A program made the translations under genes and the position numbers. Positions 51,548 to 64,000 of a stretch of DNA of 64,000 nt are shown piece by piece. The notes beneath the pieces are model-generated. The model searched no databases. It saw only the letters and a list, made by a program, of their open reading frames with translations, and was not told where the DNA came from. The stretch is from NCBI GenBank assembly GCA_035291665.1, contig DATDRP010000006.1, positions 209,255 through 273,254 of the forward strand, in the 5' to 3' direction. Positions within the stretch are counted from its first letter, which is position 1. The number at the start of each line of letters is the position of its first letter. Source of the DNA: Patescibacteria group bacterium (GTDB taxonomy: Bacteria > Patescibacteriota > Microgenomatia > UBA8517).

Positions 51548-54500
51548 TTATTTTGCAGATTTTTTGTATTCAATCCCGGTTATGCTTTTAAAAGTTTTTT
51601 TGTCAGTAATGTGATAATTATCCAGTTCGGTATTTGTCATTTCTAATATTCCTGCTATGCGAACTCTAGGCAATCCAAAAATACCGTATATTTCGTCACC
51701 CACATTTTTGAATAATTTGGCTCTTTTCATCATTTCTGCCTCTTCTGACCCTAAGATAATATCTCCCGTTCTTTGAGGGTATGATCCTTGGGCGATTTTT
51801 AAGGCACCTATGTCTTCTACTTCAAGAAAAACTTTAGTTTCACCGTCTTTAATTACTAATTTTGTATTTCCTTTTTGGAGTAACTTTTCAGCTGATACTG
51901 TCATTTTTGTTGTGCCTTCAGTCTGCATATTTTTCTCTCCGCCTGCCATACTTGAACTGACATTAGCGAATTGTATAAACATAAAGGTAAACGCAATTGC
52001 CATAAAAGCTGGTGCAAATGTTGATACATAATCCTTCTTTCCGGGAGTAAATCTTCGTAAAATTAGTGAATTTCCCACTACAGAAATGGAACTTAATGCC
52101 ATTGCAAGACCTGCGAGTTCGGGTTTTAAAACAAGTCCGGCAAAGCTGAAAACTCTAGCAGCAATAGGAATGCCAATGACATTATAAAAAAGTGCAAAGA
52201 ACATATTCTGTTTTATCTTTTGCATAGTTGAGCGGGAAAGTTCGATTGAGGAAACAACATCTCTAAGGTCGTTTTTGATAATAACAATTCCGCCGGTTTC
52301 CATAGCTACATCCGTACCCGAACCCATAGCTATACCAAGATCCGCTTGGGCGAGAGCCGGCGCATCGTTTATTCCATCCCCGACCATCGCCACTTTTTTG
52401 CCGGTATCTTGTAATTTTTTGACTTCATTGGCTTTATCTTCAGGTAACACCTCTGCTAAAACATTAGTAATTCCAACCTGTGAAGCAATCGCTCTTGCCG
52501 TTCTCTCATTATCTCCGGTAATCATATAAACAGTAATTCTTCGCTTTGCGAGCATTTCAATTGCCTCTTTTGAGGTTTCTTTTACCGTATCGGCAACAGC
52601 AATGAGGCCTAACACTTTCTTTTTTGTTGACAATACCATCACGGTTTTACCCTGGTTTTCTAAAGAATCTATAGTGTATCCATGTTCCGAGAGCGACAGC
52701 CCTAATGTTTCGCTTGCAAGTTTTGGTTTACCAAAATAATAAATCTCTTTACCAATGAATCCTTGTACACCAAATCCCGGGATTGCCATAAACCCTTCGA
52801 CTTCGCTTAAAGCAAGGCCTTTTTCCTGGGCATTTGAATATATTGCCTCAGCAAGGGGGTGCTCTGATTGTTTTTCCAGCGAGGCGGCAATTTCTAATAT
52901 ATTCGCTTGCCCAATAATGTCAGTCACTTCAGGTTTTCCTTTTGTTATTGTTCCCGTCTTATCAAAGATAATAGTATCGATTTTGCACGCCTTCTCCAAC
53001 GGTTCTCCACCTTTAACCAATATGCCATGTTCAGCACCTTTACCTGTGCCAACCATAATTGCTGTAGGTGTTGCAAGCCCTAACGCACACGGGCATGCAA
53101 TTACTATAACTGCGGTAAATGCCATTAGAGCAAAAGACAGAGTTGCTCCCAGAACGAAATACCAAATAACAAAAGTTGAAAATGCAATCAATATTACAGC
53201 AGGTACAAAAAACGCAGAAATTTTATCTGCAATTGCTTGGATAGGAGCCTTTGATCCCTGTGCATCTTCAACAAGTTTAATAATTTGGGAAAGAGTGGTT
53301 TCAGAACCGACCCTTGTTGCCATGAATTCAAAGCTTCCCGATTTGTTAATGGTAGAACCTATGACAAAGTCACCTTCATGTTTTTCGACGGGTAAGCTTT
53401 CACCTGTGATCATAGATTCGTCGAGTGCCGAACTGCCTCTTATTATCTCACCATCAACCGGAACCTTTTCTCCGGGACGAACCAATACTGTGTCTCCTTT
53501 AAGGACTTCTTCAAGGGGAATATCAAGTGTTTGGCCATTTCTTATAACCCTTGCTGTTTTTGCCTGTAAACACATTAGTTTTTTGATTGCTTCCGATGTA
53601 CGGCCTTTTGCTTTTGCCTCAAGCCATTTTCCCAAAATGACAAAGGTAATTAAAAATGCTGCGGTTTCGAAATAAAGTTCGGGAATTTTAGATCCGTTTA
53701 AGCCGATAAGTGAATTTTTGGCAAGATAATAAAGAATAAAATTAACTGCACTATAAAAATAAGCAACCGATGTGCCGATTGCTATAAGACTATCCATATT
53801 AAAAGTTCTCATCCTGAGGCCAGACATCATTCCTTTGTAAAAACCTGCTCCGATAATAAATTGAACTGGAGTTGCCAGAATAAATGAAATAATCCCGACA
53901 TAGGGGAGAAGCAGGGTTGCCCCCAGGAAATTCGGGAAAAAGTCAAAAAGCATAAAGTAAATCATCGGGAAACTTAAGACTAAGCTCCAGGTAAACCTCT
54001 TAAAGTAACCACCAATTTGAACTTGTTGTTTTTCTGCTTCTTCTTTTGTATTTGAGGGGTCTGAAACTATTGCCTTATAACCAGTTTTTTCTACTGCTTT
54101 GATGAGGTCCTCTTCTTTTGCAGTCGAAGAATTAAATGTTACTGTCGCTTTCTCTGCAGCAAAATTTACACGGGCTTCCGTTACTCCGGTCACCTTTTTT
54201 AACGACTTTTCAATTACACCTGCACAAGATGTACAATGCATGCCGAAAAGGGACAGAGCAATCTTTTTCTGAGATTCAGTTTTTTCAATAGAAGAAGTTG
54301 CTGGAACTTTTTCTTTTACTTCCGTAACAGGTTCGTTTTTCAATCCTAAGTTACCTTCGAATACAAATTCTCCTTTCTCATCTTTTTTGACCGATCCTTT
54401 GATACTAATACCAGTGGAAATGATGTTTTTAAGAAGCATACTGTCATATATAACTTGTCCAGCAACCTTACCATTACCGTTTTTTTCTTTGAGATTTTCA

Positions 54501-54715
54501 ACCTCACCTTTATACCCTGCGTTCGCGATTGCTTTTAGAATCAAGTCTCTATTTATTTCTTGGTCTGCAGTTAAAAAGCCATCACCAGTTTTATGATCGA
54601 CAGACACGGTATCAACGCCTGGAATATCAGAAATCTCATCTTTTATAAGCATCTCACAGCTTTTGCAGTGCATTCCGTTGACATTAAATTTGACTGTATT
54701 TTTTCCGTTTTTCAT
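51548..54715 (-). CDS. copA: P1B-1 (CopA-type) Cu(I)-transporting P-type ATPase with two N-terminal HMA domains and an extra C-terminal domain
   Basis: GMHCKSC and GMHCTSC HMA motifs, CPC (VIACPCALG), [19 protein letters not shown]. About 170 aa beyond the last TM have no ATPase counterpart. Confidence 0.85.
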
Positions 54716-54846
54716 AGCAATTTCAAGGAAACCCCGATTCTATCGGGGAGGAATTGAACTTGATATATCATTCTCATTCAGATGTGAAACCACACTCACA
54801 AGAGCGTGGAGAATGTTATATAACTTTATATTCCATTCCCTCCAAA
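54716..54846 (-). promoter_or_regulatory. conserved promoter plus structured leader element, copy A, ending at the copA ATG
   Basis: On the minus strand: TTGGAG-N17-TATATAAC, then ACATTCTCC, hairpin, GGTTTCAC..GAGAATGATATATCAAGTTCAATTCCTCC, hairpin CCCCGATagaATCGGGG, GTTTCCTTGAAATTGCTATG. Confidence 0.55.
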
Positions 54847-55022
54847 GCTTTTTGGAATTCATCATTTGAAATATCTCTTGTCAAAACAACTTCGGTTTCG
54901 CCAGTTTCGAAATTAACATTAACCAAGGTAACTCCATTAATCGCACCGAACTTTCTTTCAATAAGTCTTTTACATGCTTGACAGTGAGTACCTTTGATTG
55001 TAATTTGAATTTTCTTTTCCAT
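54816..55022 (-). CDS. copZ: CopZ-like copper chaperone (single HMA domain)
   Basis: MEKKIQITIKGTHCQACKRL...: GTHCxxC motif. The start at 55022 directly follows the upstream stop. The longer ORF-track start at 55106 would overlap the upstream gene by 83 nt. Confidence 0.7.
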   Translation of the reverse strand: MEKKIQITIKGTHCQACKRLIERKFGAINGVTLVNVNFETGETEVVLTRDISNDEFQKALEGMEYKVI

Positions 55023-55023
55023 A

Positions 55024-56859
55024 TTAAATAACTGTAATAGTTCCCCTTGGAACTCCCATTGCACAAGTGATAGGGTACTTACCCGGTTTATCAGGGGTAA
55101 ATTCAAAGACTAGTGTTTTTCCCTTTTCCAAAAACTGCGGATTATCAGTTAGTTGAGGTATATAAATAGTACTCATGCAGCCGCTACCTTCATCTTTTAC
55201 ATCCACTTCCATGCGTACAGGCTTTCCGGCTTTAACGGTAAATTCAAAAGGAGAGATGTCCGTATCACTTTTATAGATGGTATTTAATATCTGGACGCCG
55301 TTTTCATTTTTGGCGAGGGTGGGTGTCACCCCCACACCAACTTTAGCCGCTTGTGCTTTTCCACCTCCGCAACCACAGCCCCCACTACCACTTCCGCAAC
55401 TACCATTTGCCACCGGTTGACCCACAGCGGGAGCTGTGTTTGCTGCTAGCACCTTATTGTCGTTATTGTTTACCTGACCATTAGAAGTGCCTTTTTCAAC
55501 AACCGCAAAACTTCCTGTGTACATTCCCATGCTGCAGGAGAAATTGATTGTTCCAACTTCTTTTGGAGTAAATTCGATTATATTTTCTCCAGGGTGCAGA
55601 CTTTGACGAACGTTTAGTTTCGATGAGACAATGCTCGAAGCACAGGTATTAGGATCCTTGGAGGTTATTATCCATTTTACAGGAACACCAACGGCAACAG
55701 TAAATTTATTCGGTGAATATCCTCTAGCCGTTTGGTCCATTCTCACAATCTGAACTCCGTCTTGTTCTTGAATTCCTGAATTTTTATCGGATGCAGCGTA
55801 TGCATTAATTCGAGTGCCTAAATCATTAAAAGGATTTGTTCCCAAAAGATTGAGGCCGTTATTCAGATTAAAGAAAGCCAATAGTGAAACTACTAATCCA
55901 GCAAATTTAAAAAACTTTTGAGCAAATACACCTTTGATAGCTGCAGTTAAACCTCCCACACTCAAAAGTCCAGGTGCGGTTCCCAAGGCAAAAATACCCA
56001 TAATTGCTGCTCCCTGAACAAAGCTACCAGTTGATACGGCATAAAGTTGCATTGCCTGGGTAAACCCGCATGGAAGGAAAAAAGTTGACCCGCCCATTAA
56101 AAATGCATTTTTATGACTATATTCCTTCTGTGTTTGTTCCTTAATTCCAAATAGTTTTGATATTCCTTTAGGCATTGAAAAACTAACATTCTGGAGTCTT
56201 GGGAAAAGGCCAGTAAGTTGTAATCCGAGTGTAAGCATTACGAGTGCAACGGCTGCAGTAACAAGTCCAAGACTTGTTCCGGAAAACTGAAAGAATGATC
56301 CCAAAAGTCCTATTGCGCCTCCGAGAATAGTGTAAGAAGTAATTCTTCCTAAGTTAAATAATAAATGGGGCTTAAATTTTTCAAAAGGGGTTGCGTTGGC
56401 ATTATTCTGTGAGAAACGAGCTGAAACTCCAAGTACAATTCCTCCGATTAATGCCATGCAAGTTGAAAATCCTGCGGTTAATCCAATAAGTGCAACCGTA
56501 AGTAAATTTGAAGGGTGACCGGGATTTACCGCAAAAAACTTTGACAATCCAAGTCCATCGACCAGAATAAAAAGAAAGAAAAGGACAATAGCTGCATAAA
56601 TTATGTCCATATAGTCTTCAACTTTGGCTGAGAATATGGGAGGTTTTTCTGCAAAACCCACTTGATAACCGGCATTTTGGACTGCTTTATCTATGTCTTC
56701 TACTTTCAATTCGGAGTTTGTATAACAAATTTCTGCACAGGCTTTTTTATGCGAAACGTCTACTTTTTTAACACCTTGGATGTTTTTTAATTCATCCTCT
56801 ATTAAGAGTTCACAGCTTCTGCAGTGCATTCCCTTTATTGGTACGATAGTTTTTTTCAT
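55024..56859 (-). CDS. fusion protein: N-terminal HMA domain, multi-TM Cys-containing permease-like core (DsbD/CcdA-like?), Cys-rich linker, two C-terminal Cys-Met beta-rich domains
   Basis: GMHCRSC. TM Cys in AGFSTCMALIGG and FFLPCGFTQ. Linker GSCGSGSGGCGCGGG. Repeats ...FSCSMGMYTGSF... and ...ITCAMGVPRGTI... Confidence 0.6.
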   Translation of the reverse strand: MKKTIVPIKGMHCRSCELLIEDELKNIQGVKKVDVSHKKACAEICYTNSELKVEDIDKAVQNAGYQVGFAEKPPIFSAKVEDYMDIIYAAIVLFFLFILVDGLGLSKFFAVNPGHPSNLLTVALIGLTAGFSTCMALIGGIVLGVSARFSQNNANATPFEKFKPHLLFNLGRITSYTILGGAIGLLGSFFQFSGTSLGLVTAAVALVMLTLGLQLTGLFPRLQNVSFSMPKGISKLFGIKEQTQKEYSHKNAFLMGGSTFFLPCGFTQAMQLYAVSTGSFVQGAAIMGIFALGTAPGLLSVGGLTAAIKGVFAQKFFKFAGLVVSLLAFFNLNNGLNLLGTNPFNDLGTRINAYAASDKNSGIQEQDGVQIVRMDQTARGYSPNKFTVAVGVPVKWIITSKDPNTCASSIVSSKLNVRQSLHPGENIIEFTPKEVGTINFSCSMGMYTGSFAVVEKGTSNGQVNNNDNKVLAANTAPAVGQPVANGSCGSGSGGCGCGGGKAQAAKVGVGVTPTLAKNENGVQILNTIYKSDTDISPFEFTVKAGKPVRMEVDVKDEGSGCMSTIYIPQLTDNPQFLEKGKTLVFEFTPDKPGKYPITCAMGVPRGTITVI

Positions 56860-56991
56860 AACAGTTTCAAGGAAACCGTAAACTTAATAGTTTACGGAGG
56901 AATTGAACCTGATATATCATTCTCCCTCAGGGGTGAAACCATGCCTAATGGCATGGAGAATGTTATAATCAGTTTTCCAACATCTGATCAA
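56860..56991 (-). promoter_or_regulatory. conserved promoter plus structured leader element, copy B, ending at the ATG of the HMA fusion gene
   Basis: TTGATC-N17-TTATAAC, then ACATTCTCC, hairpin CCATGCCattaGGCATGG, GTTTCAC..GGAGAATGATATATCAGGTTCAATTCCTCC, hairpin CGTAAACTattaAGTTTACG, GTTTCCTTGAAACTGTTATG. Confidence 0.55.
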
Positions 56992-57769
56992 TTGCCTTTT
57001 TGAAATCTTCATATGGGTAAGCTCCCGGCATTAATTTTGTTTTGCCCGTTTTTGTATCCAATAGAATGTTGCCGGGGGTACCATTTACACCTAAGCTTGC
57101 TGCCGTATCTGCGTCACTTTTAACTCTGTCCGCATACTTTCCGCTTTCCAGACAACTCGTAAATTTGGACTCATTTACTCCAGCTTCTTTTGCTAAGTCC
57201 GGTAAATCCGAAAGAGCAATACCTGTTCCACCTGAGTTGGTTTTTGTAAATAGTACATTTACAAATTTCCAAAATGCGGTGTTTCCTCCTAATTCATTTG
57301 CACATTCTGAAGCTTCTGCCTCTTTGGCTGCATTTGCGTGGAAGGGTAGTGGCAGGTGTCGGTAGACCCAAGCAACGTCTCCTTTGTAGCTATCTACAAT
57401 CTTTTGGGCTGTCGGATGGAACCTTTTGCAGTAAGGACATTCCATATCCGAATATTCGAAAAGAAATATCCTTGCATCTTTTTCTCCATTTACATGATCA
57501 TCAGTAGTCAATTTTATCTCACCCTTTAACTCGGGAGCTACTGCGGAAGGCTGAGAGGGTTGAGTCGGGTTGGTATCATTTCCTTTCGCTTCCACCTGTA
57601 TTCCTTCGACTTGAGAACCGTTTTTATAGGTTCCCAGTTCTTTTTCTAGAAATTTTACACGGGTGTACAATGATCCGACAAAGAATAGACTAACAAGTGC
57701 AATTCCTATAGATAAGGCTAAAAAGTTTTCGTTTTTGGGTTCTTGATTATCTGAATTTATTTTTGGCAT
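56969..57769 (-). CDS. membrane-anchored thioredoxin-fold thiol:disulfide oxidoreductase (DsbA/BdbD-like)
   Basis: N-terminal TM. DMECPYCKRFHP CxxC active site in a thioredoxin-fold context. Confidence 0.65.
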   Translation of the reverse strand: MPKINSDNQEPKNENFLALSIGIALVSLFFVGSLYTRVKFLEKELGTYKNGSQVEGIQVEAKGNDTNPTQPSQPSAVAPELKGEIKLTTDDHVNGEKDARIFLFEYSDMECPYCKRFHPTAQKIVDSYKGDVAWVYRHLPLPFHANAAKEAEASECANELGGNTAFWKFVNVLFTKTNSGGTGIALSDLPDLAKEAGVNESKFTSCLESGKYADRVKSDADTAASLGVNGTPGNILLDTKTGKTKLMPGAYPYEDFKKAIDQMLEN

Positions 57770-57838: not shown

Positions 57839-58357
57839 TTATATGTAATAATTTATTAATATGTAAACGGCAATACTCGCCATTAGCATCGACCCCAAAC
57901 TGAAAACCATGGATTGGTAGGGGAAGAGTCTTTTTCCGTTTTTCTTTTTTATAAAGATGTTTAAAATATCAAACGAGTAAAAAACTACACTTCCCAAGAT
58001 CATGCCGAAAGTTAACTTATCAAAACCAAAGATGCTGTCCATTCTTATAATTAATTTGAATACATAGAAAGACCAAAGTGTCGAAACGAAAATAAGAATA
58101 TATACTAATAGTCCTACAAAGCGATTAAAAAATATTTTGTTTCTTTGACCCAAAGAATTACAAAGCCAAAAGGCAATCGCACCCAATAATCCTCCGATCC
58201 AAATTCCGGTAATTGAGTCGTCAACGCCCACCCATCTGGTTAAAGTAATACCGGCCGCAGCACCTGCAACACATAAAGGACAGTGCGCGAAAGCTAGTGA
58301 AGGTGTTAAAAGTCTAACAACCAAAAAAGATAGAAGAATAAAAGATATTATCCACAT
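57839..58357 (-). CDS. integral membrane protein with TM-proximal CPLC motif (possible DsbB/VKOR-like partner of the DsbA-like protein)
   Basis: Four or five TM helices. AFAHCPLCVAGAA. Tentative functional guess from gene context. Confidence 0.35.
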   Translation of the reverse strand: MWIISFILLSFLVVRLLTPSLAFAHCPLCVAGAAAGITLTRWVGVDDSITGIWIGGLLGAIAFWLCNSLGQRNKIFFNRFVGLLVYILIFVSTLWSFYVFKLIIRMDSIFGFDKLTFGMILGSVVFYSFDILNIFIKKKNGKRLFPYQSMVFSLGSMLMASIAVYILINYYI

Positions 58358-58359
58358 AT

Positions 58360-58878
58360 TTAGTTAACAACGTTACCATTGAATTTGAGTTCTTTTGTTC
58401 CGGACGGATTACTGAAGTAAAGAAAAACCGTGCGGTCAAAAGGACCTACCCCTTTTGGACCGTGTGCAGCCGGATCAAATATTGCAGTAACAGTTGCAGT
58501 TTGTCCTGAAGGTAATTCAAGATTTACCGGAGGATTTTTATCTCCCATCCCTTCCATCCCGAACTCTCTGGTTTCTTTGTCGCCGATTTTTATTTTTGTT
58601 TTGGTACACATACATGAAGTTGCAATTCTTTGAAGTTTCATAGATTCTGCAGACGTATTTTTGACTTCGTAAGTTTTAACCACATTACCGTCTTTCATTT
58701 TGATCGTGCCGACATCATACGATGCAGGACTAACTTCCAAGTCTTTAATATCTACTGATGCTATAGCATCAACCTCTTTTGCCGGAGATTCTTTTCCTCC
58801 TTGCCATATTGCAAAACCAACGATAAGTAGAAAAGAAAAAACCAGTACCCCGATAAGTATTTTCGTATCTTTAGTCAT
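58360..58878 (-). CDS. membrane-anchored secreted protein with CMC and His/Met motifs (possible metal-binding beta-sandwich)
   Basis: N-terminal TM. SCMCTKTK...FGMEGMGDK...AAHGPKG. Confidence 0.35.
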   Translation of the reverse strand: MTKDTKILIGVLVFSFLLIVGFAIWQGGKESPAKEVDAIASVDIKDLEVSPASYDVGTIKMKDGNVVKTYEVKNTSAESMKLQRIATSCMCTKTKIKIGDKETREFGMEGMGDKNPPVNLELPSGQTATVTAIFDPAAHGPKGVGPFDRTVFLYFSNPSGTKELKFNGNVVN

Positions 58879-59138
58879 TTTTTATTGCTTAAGAATTGAA
58901 CAATTTTATAAAATTCTCGGTTACCATTTAAACTTTTAATCTTTTCCCGTAAACAACAACTCAAATGACCTTCAAGCATAATTTTTCGCGCATTTTCCAA
59001 AGCACGTTGTGCTTTTCGGGAACTTTTTACTACCTTAATACACTCATCATGGTTCTCGAATAAAAATAATGTTTTATTCAGATATTTTTTTGCAGTGGAC
59101 AATTCTGATAAAACCTTATCTTTTACTATTGTATCCAT
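58875..59138 (-). CDS. small hypothetical protein
   Basis: ORF only. Confidence 0.3.
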   Translation of the reverse strand: MDTIVKDKVLSELSTAKKYLNKTLFLFENHDECIKVVKSSRKAQRALENARKIMLEGHLSCCLREKIKSLNGNREFYKIVQFLSNKK

Positions 59139-59314: not shown

Positions 59315-59626
59315 TCACTCACTTTTTAATTCATCTAAACTTTTTCTCAACATTAATTTCAAGGTCTTTTTTCCGGGGTTCGTTTTGAAATATCTTTCCC
59401 TTCTTAGTGCATCATGCTTCGAAACAAAATATTCACAAAATATTAATTTAAAAGGACGCCTTGAAGCAGTGGCTTTTGATTTGCCATGAAAGTGTGCAGT
59501 TAAACGTTCTTTTAAATTAGAGCTGGATCCGATATAGAAAAGACCGTCTTTTTGACTTAAAAGTACATACGTACACCAATTGAGTTTTGACATACTATTT
59601 ATATTAATTTGTCTTTGGAGAAACAT
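59315..59626 (-). CDS. GIY-YIG nuclease-domain protein (YhbQ/UPF0213-like)
   Basis: WCTYVLLSQKDGLFYIGSSSNLKERLTAHFHGKS matches the GIY-x10-YIG motif. Confidence 0.7.
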   Translation of the reverse strand: MFLQRQININSMSKLNWCTYVLLSQKDGLFYIGSSSNLKERLTAHFHGKSKATASRRPFKLIFCEYFVSKHDALRRERYFKTNPGKKTLKLMLRKSLDELKSE

Positions 59627-59690: not shown

Positions 59691-59764
<74 letters not shown>

Positions 59765-63872: not shown

Positions 63873-64000
63873 GTTGTTAAGTATTAGTGTAAGTCCTGCA
63901 ACAAGATAATGTAAATGGATATTTATAACAGCGTTCAAGAATACCACGCCCTTTAGGGCGTGGATGAATTGAACTCAGATATGTCATCCTCCTTAGGGAA

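Follow-up and report, generated by a model that had tools for sequence, protein, structure and literature searches.

What does a cell carry across its membrane, and in which direction, with a single protein chain that joins an HMA domain, a membrane core with two cysteines, a Gly/Cys-rich linker, and two cupredoxin domains? The question is raised by a gene of 611 codons plus a stop (positions 55024..56859) in a 64,000-nucleotide stretch of DNA from a Patescibacteria group bacterium (GTDB lineage Microgenomatia, UBA8517; assembly GCA_035291665.1, contig DATDRP010000006.1, positions 209,255 to 273,254 of the forward strand), hereafter the window. The answer that we favor, tentatively and at a little under an even chance, is that the product would be a membrane protein of copper homeostasis working alongside CopZ and CopA, with Cu(I) passed outward from the HMA domain through the pair of membrane cysteines to external CupA-like domains. 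All features of the window for which we give coordinates are on its minus strand.

The 611-amino-acid (aa) open reading frame (ORF) reported in the first-pass annotation of the window is genuine, and translation recovers every motif quoted from it: GMHCRSC is residues 10–16, AGFSTCMALIGG holds Cys134, FFLPCGFTQ holds Cys264, FSCSMGMYTGSF is residues 440–451 in the first cupredoxin domain, GSCGSGSGGCGCGGG is residues 486–500 in the linker, and ITCAMGVPRGTI is residues 597–608 in the second cupredoxin domain. The start at the 611-aa ATG is backed by the N termini of homologs (MxKTTVPIKGMHC) and by a leader element that ends in the same ATG. Public calls for the identical protein (P0001; L001, 2892-4697) begin at Met11 and give 601 aa; a start at Met11 would remove the first strand of the HMA domain. 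A Pfam scan of the protein returns HMA, DsbD_2, and two Cupredoxin_1 stretches, and all four parts belong, as far as profile matches tell, to known families. The part-by-part reading first proposed for this protein was correct: an HMA domain, a DsbD/CcdA-like core, a conserved linker, and cupredoxin repeats with a Cys/Met copper site. Judged from sequence, these domain and motif features go far beyond chance, since the key Cys and Met residues are retained in 78–81 of 81 species-level homologs.

At the N terminus is a CopZ-like HMA domain (residues 3–69; 56653..56853), predicted to be cytoplasmic and identified by Pfam and by PDB matches. Its Pfam match (PF00403, residues 6–66) scores 46.1 bits against a cut-off of 24.8, and in a PDB sequence search the domain matches the metal-binding domains of Cu-ATPases and CopZ. 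Of the β-α-β-β-α-β elements of an HMA fold, the model has the first five, in the order strand-helix-strand-strand-helix, with a 2-residue bridge in place of the sixth. The GMHCRSC motif supplies Cys13, retained in 80 of the 81 homologs, and Cys16, retained in all 81. The NCBIfam model MerTP_fusion also touches this part of the protein alone, below threshold (47.3 bits, cut-off 180).

Hydropathy and an AlphaFold model agree on seven membrane helices, an extra helix (TM0, residues 84–104; 56548..56610) followed by a six-helix core (residues 119–340; 55840..56505). TM0 has a hydropathy peak of 2.5 and corresponds to a model helix at residues 80–103. The membrane part had been described as a polytopic core of roughly 300 residues with two cysteines; the core and its cysteines stand, and the length is corrected to about 260 residues in seven helices. 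With TM0 present, the HMA domain would lie inside while the six-helix core starts outside. The loops carry 12 Lys or Arg residues on the N-terminal side versus 1 on the opposite side, which accords with TM0, and in all 81 homologs there is an excess of 8 to 20 positive charges on one side. On the basis of this charge bias, the positive-inside rule predicts a cytoplasmic HMA domain, with the linker and both cupredoxin domains extracellular.

The six-helix core resembles that of DsbD and CcdA. Pfam DsbD_2 (PF13386) matches residues 122–328 at 113.6 bits (cut-off 24.9), over profile positions 2–197 of 199, and a profile of diverse cores of the family aligns with E. coli DsbD over 170 columns (hhalign probability 88%, E = 2.9e-6). 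Cys134 (codon 56458..56460), at a break in core helix 1 of the model (residues 130–134), is aligned with Cys182 of the DsbD precursor (FTPC), and Cys264 (codon 56068..56070), at a modeled break in core helix 4 (residues 261–263), with Cys304 (SPC). Given a 19-residue signal peptide, we take these positions to be the redox-active pair of mature DsbD, Cys163 and Cys285. Cys134 and Cys264 are each retained in 81 of 81 homologs; this conservation is partly by construction, since both membrane motifs served to retrieve the loci, and that of other residues is not. The cysteines sit within an invariant Ser-Thr-Cys (STC) and an invariant 13-residue motif, TFFLPCGFTQAMQ (Thr-Phe-Phe-Leu-Pro-Cys-Gly-Phe-Thr-Gln-Ala-Met-Gln, which includes TFFLPCGFTQ), and have invariant polar residues around them (Thr, Gln, Gln, Met, and, in helix 2, an Arg). 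Helix 4 reads Leu-Pro-Cys and helix 1 Ser-Thr-Cys, without Pro. A Pro-Cys at both membrane cysteines is a feature of CcdA and DsbD.

The Pfam DsbD_TM profile (PF02683) has no match in the window protein at E up to 10. Two relatives exceed its cut-off of 27.1 bits, P0222 with 38.9 and P0229 with 27.8. The early comparison of the core with DsbD/CcdA or with TauE-like permeases is upheld for the former by DsbD_2; for the latter, Pfam TauE (PF01925) does not match the core at E up to 10, where DsbD_2 alone is reported. Records of relatives at NCBI and JGI bear the name "sulfite exporter TauE/SafE family protein." By the same profile comparison this name is misleading: in the lack of a TauE match, Pfam gives it no support.

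The two C-terminal domains are, on sequence and model comparison, CupA-type cupredoxin domains with predicted Cu(I) sites. Domain 1 (residues 363–455; 55495..55773), with the ligand pattern Cys406...Cys442-x-Met444-x-Met446, matches Streptococcus pneumoniae CupA (2MRY/4F2E; E = 1.9e-10, phmmer) and the metal-binding domain of S. pneumoniae CopA (4F2F; E = 4.5e-9), and in these alignments the first Cys and the Cys-x-Met-x-Met coincide. Its model superposes on 4F2E (Foldseek) with E = 4.6e-8, a target TM-score of 0.88, and a root mean square deviation of 1.2 Å over 93 columns at 31% identity. All four ligands are retained in 78–81 of the 81 homologs. Domain 2 (residues 513–611; 55027..55323; Cys561-Met562...Cys599-x-Met601) is recognized by Pfam Cupredoxin_1 (E = 8.6e-13) and is modeled at a local confidence score (pLDDT) of 80–95; its best PDB match is also CupA (E = 2.3e-4, both Cys aligned). 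It keeps Cys561, Cys599, and Met601, with Val at the last ligand position, and its cysteines are retained in every two-domain homolog. The two domains are homologous repeats, as had been proposed (33% identity, E = 2e-12), of about 95 residues each and not the 75 first estimated. The match to CupA confirms the suggested resemblance to cupredoxin or Cu(I)-binding β-sandwiches. It also means that the statement that no characterized family could be recognized fails for the repeats, which are relatives of a solved and characterized protein. The fold and ligands of these domains are known; their outside location, itself a prediction, and their fusion partner are new.

Between the two domains runs the Gly/Cys-rich linker GSCGSGSGGCGCGGG (55360..55404), with Cys488, Cys495, and Cys497 in a Cys-x6-Cys-x-Cys arrangement. 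The region is disordered in the model (pLDDT <50 over residues 458–510). The linker cysteines are retained in 38–40 of 43 two-domain homologs, and Cys497 is invariant in alignment A2.

The family is large. A word-indexed protein search gave 3,767 relatives among 8,000 scored candidates, and a scan of one genome per species gave at least 600 matching stretches, of which 592 of those listed encode a relative. With the core alone as query, the number of cluster representatives found is 4,083 at E up to 1e-3, 1,575 at E up to 1e-10, and 289 at E up to 1e-30. The same three Pfam domains are present in all 120 best database matches. The first-pass annotation had called the architecture novel; with 120 of 120 best matches sharing the three-domain arrangement and at least 592 stretches of the species scan encoding a relative, it is not new to databases. 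For the whole protein, the remark that it belongs to no characterized family has held up, none having turned up in the literature searched, and we found no characterized example there of the combination of external CupA-type domains, a DsbD-type core, and a cytoplasmic HMA domain.

The 80 best loci come from Microgenomates, Parcubacteria, Gracilibacteria, WWE3, Berkelbacteria, and similar groups, plus some doubtfully labeled bins. Relatives outside the candidate phyla, judged to be so from Ala-rich composition alone, retain the same motifs. The closest relative (81% identity, same gene order) is in a third-party-annotated (TPA) metagenome bin. Several TPA bins with clear Patescibacteria-type copies (L006, L007, L013, L016, L017, L021, and others) are titled "uncultured Gammaproteobacteria," "Pseudomonadales," or "Bdellovibrionales," and these titles look unreliable.

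Among the 100 nearest cluster representatives, 88 have an HMA domain and 81 a cupredoxin domain. The 81 species-level genomes divide into 38 with one cupredoxin domain (proteins of about 450 residues) and 43 with two domains and the Cys-rich linker. In two relatives that lack the HMA domain, a comparable site is found nearby or in its place: at locus L004 a separate HMA gene follows, and P0222 (L153, a single short contig) has instead a cytoplasmic Glu-Cys-Cys-Gly-Gly-Glu stretch. Another variant, P0194 (L154), is a 720-residue fusion of HMA, DsbD_2, Cupredoxin_1, ScsC_N, and DSBA with the active site CSYC, seen on a single 2.4-kb contig; like that of P0222, this contig is too small to include neighboring genes. 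Apparent fusions to CopA in L050 and L057 were rejected, as the long ORFs arose from ORF extension through a stop codon.

The genes around the window copy point to copper. The gene for a 68-aa HMA chaperone, copZ (54816..55022; Pfam HMA), follows directly, as first noted, beginning 2 bases past the stop codon. Beyond it is copA (51548..54715), which encodes a P1B-type Cu(I) ATPase (Pfam and NCBIfam); the 1055-aa pump has two HMA domains and a CPC motif. The same-strand cluster opens with a gene for a CsoR-family repressor (58875..59138; Pfam Trns_repr_metal, 28.4 bits), whose Cys33, His58, and Cys62, read by eye, fit the C-H-C pattern of Cu-CsoR. Directly upstream of our gene is one for a membrane-anchored DsbA-like protein of the thioredoxin fold with a CPYC active site (56969..57769; Pfam Thioredoxin_4 and DSBA). 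Its membrane anchor is N-terminal, and CPYC is a motif of the reductase or isomerase type, found at the active sites of ScsC and DsbG (PMC10907172).

The copper context proposed for the gene is likewise genuine across Patescibacteria: of the 73 related loci with enough sequence, 66 have a copA core immediately downstream on the same strand, and in 49 of 84 related loci the next ORF after the gene is copZ-like. Far fewer of the 84 have a DsbA-like gene (20), a DUF1573 gene (14), or a CsoR-like gene (4). The regulator differs among relatives L002–L005, being a response regulator with a histidine kinase or a BlaI/CopY-like Penicillinase_R repressor, and it is CsoR at the window locus; the gene-copZ-copA core stays constant while the regulator varies. 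The constant partner of the gene is the copper pump gene copA. Multicopper oxidase and YtkA-like genes occur near some relatives.

In the mechanism that we favor, Cu(I) would load the HMA domain (Cys13-x-x-Cys16) from CopZ or from the cytosolic pool and would move by ligand exchange to the Cys134/Cys264 pair. This pair would face the two sides of the membrane alternately, as in CcdA, and would give up Cu(I) to the bis-cysteine and methionine sites of the external CupA-like domains, from which copper might be lost, oxidized, or handed to external copper proteins. That the cargo is Cu(I) rather than electrons, that the direction is outward, and what the energy source may be are all things that we infer. 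Each module offers a thiolate pair, so the same residues could serve ligand exchange, with Cu(I) as cargo, or thiol-disulfide exchange, with electrons as cargo. We favor Cu(I) transfer because Cu-type domains are present at both ends (HMA with GMHCxxC; CupA-like with Cys...CxMxM); because the external Met ligands, which have no role in thiol-disulfide exchange, are retained in 78–80 of the 81 homologs; and because copA is the conserved neighbor (66/73) rather than the DsbA-like gene (20/84). The HMA domain in 88 of 100 representatives, the separate HMA gene in L004, and the ECCGGE stretch of P0222 all argue that the cytoplasmic partner is a metal site and not a thioredoxin. We also count in favor of Cu(I) the constancy of the gene-copZ-copA core, the topology predicted from charge bias, the position of the membrane cysteines at helix breaks amid invariant polar residues, and the computational prediction, for gut Firmicutes, of an HMA-plus-DsbD_2 family in the CsoR copper regulon (PMC4938975), the single relevant paper that literature searches on the family turned up.

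Several observations weigh against this mechanism, and some of them lead to its nearest rival. The core is homologous to DsbD/CcdA with both cysteines aligned exactly with the DsbD redox pair, which makes electron transfer, and not metal transfer, the ancestral chemistry of the fold; the adjacent gene encodes a thioredoxin-fold protein with CPYC, and P0194 is fused to such a module. Energy coupling for export against the cytosolic copper buffer is not evident, and the export of Cu(I) is already the task of CopA. Neither a single sequence, nor two hidden Markov model profiles, nor Foldseek with a separate core model (best E = 0.63) matched the core to a solved structure, and we found no experimental study of any family member in the literature searched. 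A reductant relay like CcdA, DsbD, or ScsB is the alternative to be taken most seriously, unlikely as we think it. Here the membrane pair would carry electrons outward and keep the cysteines of the CupA-like domains, the linker, and perhaps the DsbA-like protein reduced; the reduced external thiols would then bind Cu(I) or repair copper-induced surface disulfides, with the HMA domain as copper sensor or gate or as immediate electron donor. Beyond the DsbD alignment, the CPYC neighbor, the P0194 fusion, and the passing of the DsbD_TM gathering score by P0222 and P0229, the order of a membrane Cys pair followed by an external β-sandwich with a Cys pair mirrors DsbD and ScsB, the latter with tandem immunoglobulin-like (Ig-like) domains (PMC10907172), and CupA cysteines reduce Cu(II) in vitro (PMC7558416) and would then need to be reduced again. 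Other points weigh against this relay: an HMA domain of the Cu type, not a thioredoxin, stands at the cytoplasmic end, the external Met ligands are conserved, a DsbA-like neighbor is much rarer than copA, the window protein has no DsbD_TM match, its helix-1 motif lacks the Pro-Cys of CcdA/DsbD, and the one fusion to a DsbA-like module is known from that 2.4-kb contig.

The remaining readings seem less probable. The protein might be an external acceptor or sink, its CupA-like domains collecting the Cu(I) that CopA releases, the role of CusF and CueP in Gram-negatives, or holding surface copper out, with the core acting mainly as an anchor. Tight gene linkage to copA, the predicted external position of CupA-type Cu(I) domains, the transfer of Cu(I) from CopA to CueP in vitro (PMC10907172), and the multicopper oxidase and YtkA-like genes near relatives would suit this role; yet a mere anchor would not preserve TFFLPCGFTQAMQ and both membrane cysteines in 81 of 81 genomes, and a cytoplasmic HMA domain, present in 88% of relatives, would be superfluous to it, which makes the idea improbable. 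A copper importer, in which the external cupredoxins capture copper and pass it through the Cys pair to HMA and CopZ, much as MerP-MerT handles mercury and CopC-CopD copper, appears slightly more improbable again. Because the sites form a chemically symmetric chain, sequence does not fix the direction, and the weak MerTP fusion matches on the HMA part could be read this way. Uptake components such as CopCD do occur in copper-resistance operons, which also counts for an importer. However, the MerTP model covers the HMA domain alone at 47 bits against 180, no cytoplasmic copper-requiring enzyme is encoded nearby, and the same-strand cluster includes a CsoR-type repressor, copZ, and copA, which are responders to copper excess. 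The first-pass annotation had offered copper uptake, copper delivery, or a Cu/thiol-redox relay as functions; the last two are exactly the readings left standing, and uptake is the least favored direction in view of the link to copA and the CsoR-type repressor. A TauE/SafE exporter of sulfite or organosulfonate anions with extra domains, as the NCBI and JGI names of relatives imply, is very improbable indeed: Pfam reports DsbD_2 where it would need TauE, and every fused domain and conserved neighbor is copper-related.

To return to the outward Cu(I) relay, its closest parallel at the external end is CupA, a Cu(I) chaperone whose high-affinity site is a bis-thiolate and whose second site is rich in Met, held on the cytoplasmic side by one anchor helix (PMC7558416). 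The domains described here share with it the cupredoxin fold and the Cys...Cys-x-Met-x-Met pattern, and the gene lies just before copA, as cupA does. They differ in following seven helices rather than one N-terminal helix, in their predicted position outside in all 81 homologs, and in being single or tandem. CupA is described as confined to a few streptococci, and its partner CopA also has a cupredoxin domain (PMC7558416), whereas the present family is widespread in Patescibacteria and found elsewhere as well, and the local CopA has ordinary HMA domains, with no Pfam match to a cupredoxin domain.

The core has in common with DsbD-β and CcdA its six helices, the cysteines in helices 1 and 4, and the DsbD_TM matches of some relatives. 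Unlike these proteins, it falls in DsbD_2 and not DsbD_TM, it has Ser-Thr-Cys and not Pro-Cys in helix 1, a fused HMA domain replaces the free thioredoxin, and an external cupredoxin with a copper site replaces the thioredoxin-like or Ig-like redox domain. Another parallel is the Scs system of Salmonella, Proteus, and Caulobacter, also a copper-linked cluster in which a protein of the DsbD superfamily with tandem external β-sandwiches has a CPYC neighbor. Scs proteins bind Cu(I), with ScsB as membrane reductase, ScsC carrying CPYC, and CueP as copper acceptor; ScsB has eight helices, an N-terminal α region of tandem Ig-like domains with CxxxC, and a γ domain, lacks HMA, and belongs to a periplasmic Gram-negative system (PMC10907172). 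The window protein, in contrast, has seven helices, C-terminal CupA-like domains, an HMA domain, and no thioredoxin-like domain, and its constant partner is copA and not a thioredoxin-fold protein.

In the gut Firmicutes proteins (COG2836), HMA is also fused to DsbD_2, under predicted control of a copper repressor. These have a DUF2318 membrane domain or nothing at the C terminus (PMC4938975), where our family has one or two CupA-type cupredoxin domains. The MerP-MerT pair offers a likeness of layout, with an HMA Cys-x-x-Cys passing a thiophilic metal to a membrane Cys pair and on to a Cys site on the far side. In this case homology is limited to HMA, which is inside here and periplasmic in Mer, and the membrane fold is different. 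The UreH nickel permeases presumably share PF13386. UreH is a putative secondary Ni transporter family (PMC2667541).

Copper export in single-membrane bacteria is usually described in terms of CopZ and CopA, and a third protein here adjoins copA in about nine of 10 loci across the superphylum. Its single chain brings together HMA, a DsbD-type Cys pair, and a CupA cupredoxin, the three soft-metal modules that are best known. Were its cargo Cu(I), it would be a new type of transporter and would show a disulfide cascade becoming a metal relay. If it moves electrons, it would be a compact single-protein counterpart of Scs/CueP in organisms with minimal genomes. It is possible, though we hold it doubtful, that a CcdA/DsbD-type core has been turned from an electron to a Cu(I) carrier between HMA and CupA-type sites, which would make this a new class of ATP-independent copper translocator, with the first known extracellular CupA domain, and standard in the copper operons of Patescibacteria.

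The leader upstream of the gene had been seen as its own copy of a conserved element. Copy A (56857..56966; RNA fold z-score −4.9, covariance model 105 bits) does end in the ATG of the gene, and copy B (54713..54819; z-score −3.5, 96.5 bits) ends in that of copA. On the window, the covariance model finds these two full copies of the repeat and one degenerate copy (63924-63996). The element is about 107 nt long, and three hairpins of variable sequence set apart its conserved blocks, ATAACATCCTCC, GGAGGATGATATATCAGGTTCAATTCCTCC, and GGTATCCTTGAAACTGTTATG. When 45 copies (43 distinct metagenome copies and the two from the window) are aligned, compensatory changes appear at 16 of 33 predicted pairs, and the start codon and a GGAGG are both paired. 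A 22-nt core pattern matches 66 metagenome contigs (L086–L151), and in about 60 of these the full element precedes a downstream ATG. The genes that follow are unrelated; judged by their N termini, they resemble gatB, dnaN, efp, ruvC, rpsE, and glycosyltransferases. The leader is therefore a general structured RNA of the clade and not specific to copper, and its presence has no particular significance for copper in our gene. The covariance model found no copy in 1 Mb of other Patescibacteria sequence (84 loci), and Rfam gave no match at gathering scores or at E up to 5. Two other interpretations were rejected. CACCCCTGAGGGAG in copy A looks like a CsoR operator, but that hairpin position is free to covary, and the genes behind the element are unrelated; a small upstream ORF is contradicted by hairpin length differences that are not multiples of three. 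Candidate roles for the leader are clade-specific control of translation and a mobile expression cassette.

A few further features of the cluster are of note. The C terminus of CopA (51548-52050) extends about 160 residues past the last membrane helix without matching any family; tblastn coverage to residue 1046 in many relatives suggests that the extension is conserved in these lineages. Between the DUF1573 and DsbA-like genes is one for a polytopic membrane protein of 172 residues with His-Cys-Pro-Leu-Cys after the first helix (57839-58357). It has no match in Pfam or NCBIfam and weak relatives in L041 and L059, and it could be a redox partner of the DsbA-like protein. The DUF1573 protein (58360-58878; Pfam) has an anchor helix at its N terminus and the motif Ser-Cys-Met-Cys-Thr, and it may be a further copper or thiol protein that the cluster places outside the cell; in relatives L002, L004, and L005 its gene comes just after copA. 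Beyond the CsoR gene are a small ORF that is GIY-YIG-like by eye only (59315-59626) and a tRNA gene (59694-59764; Rfam, 58 bits), which mark the edge of the copper cluster.

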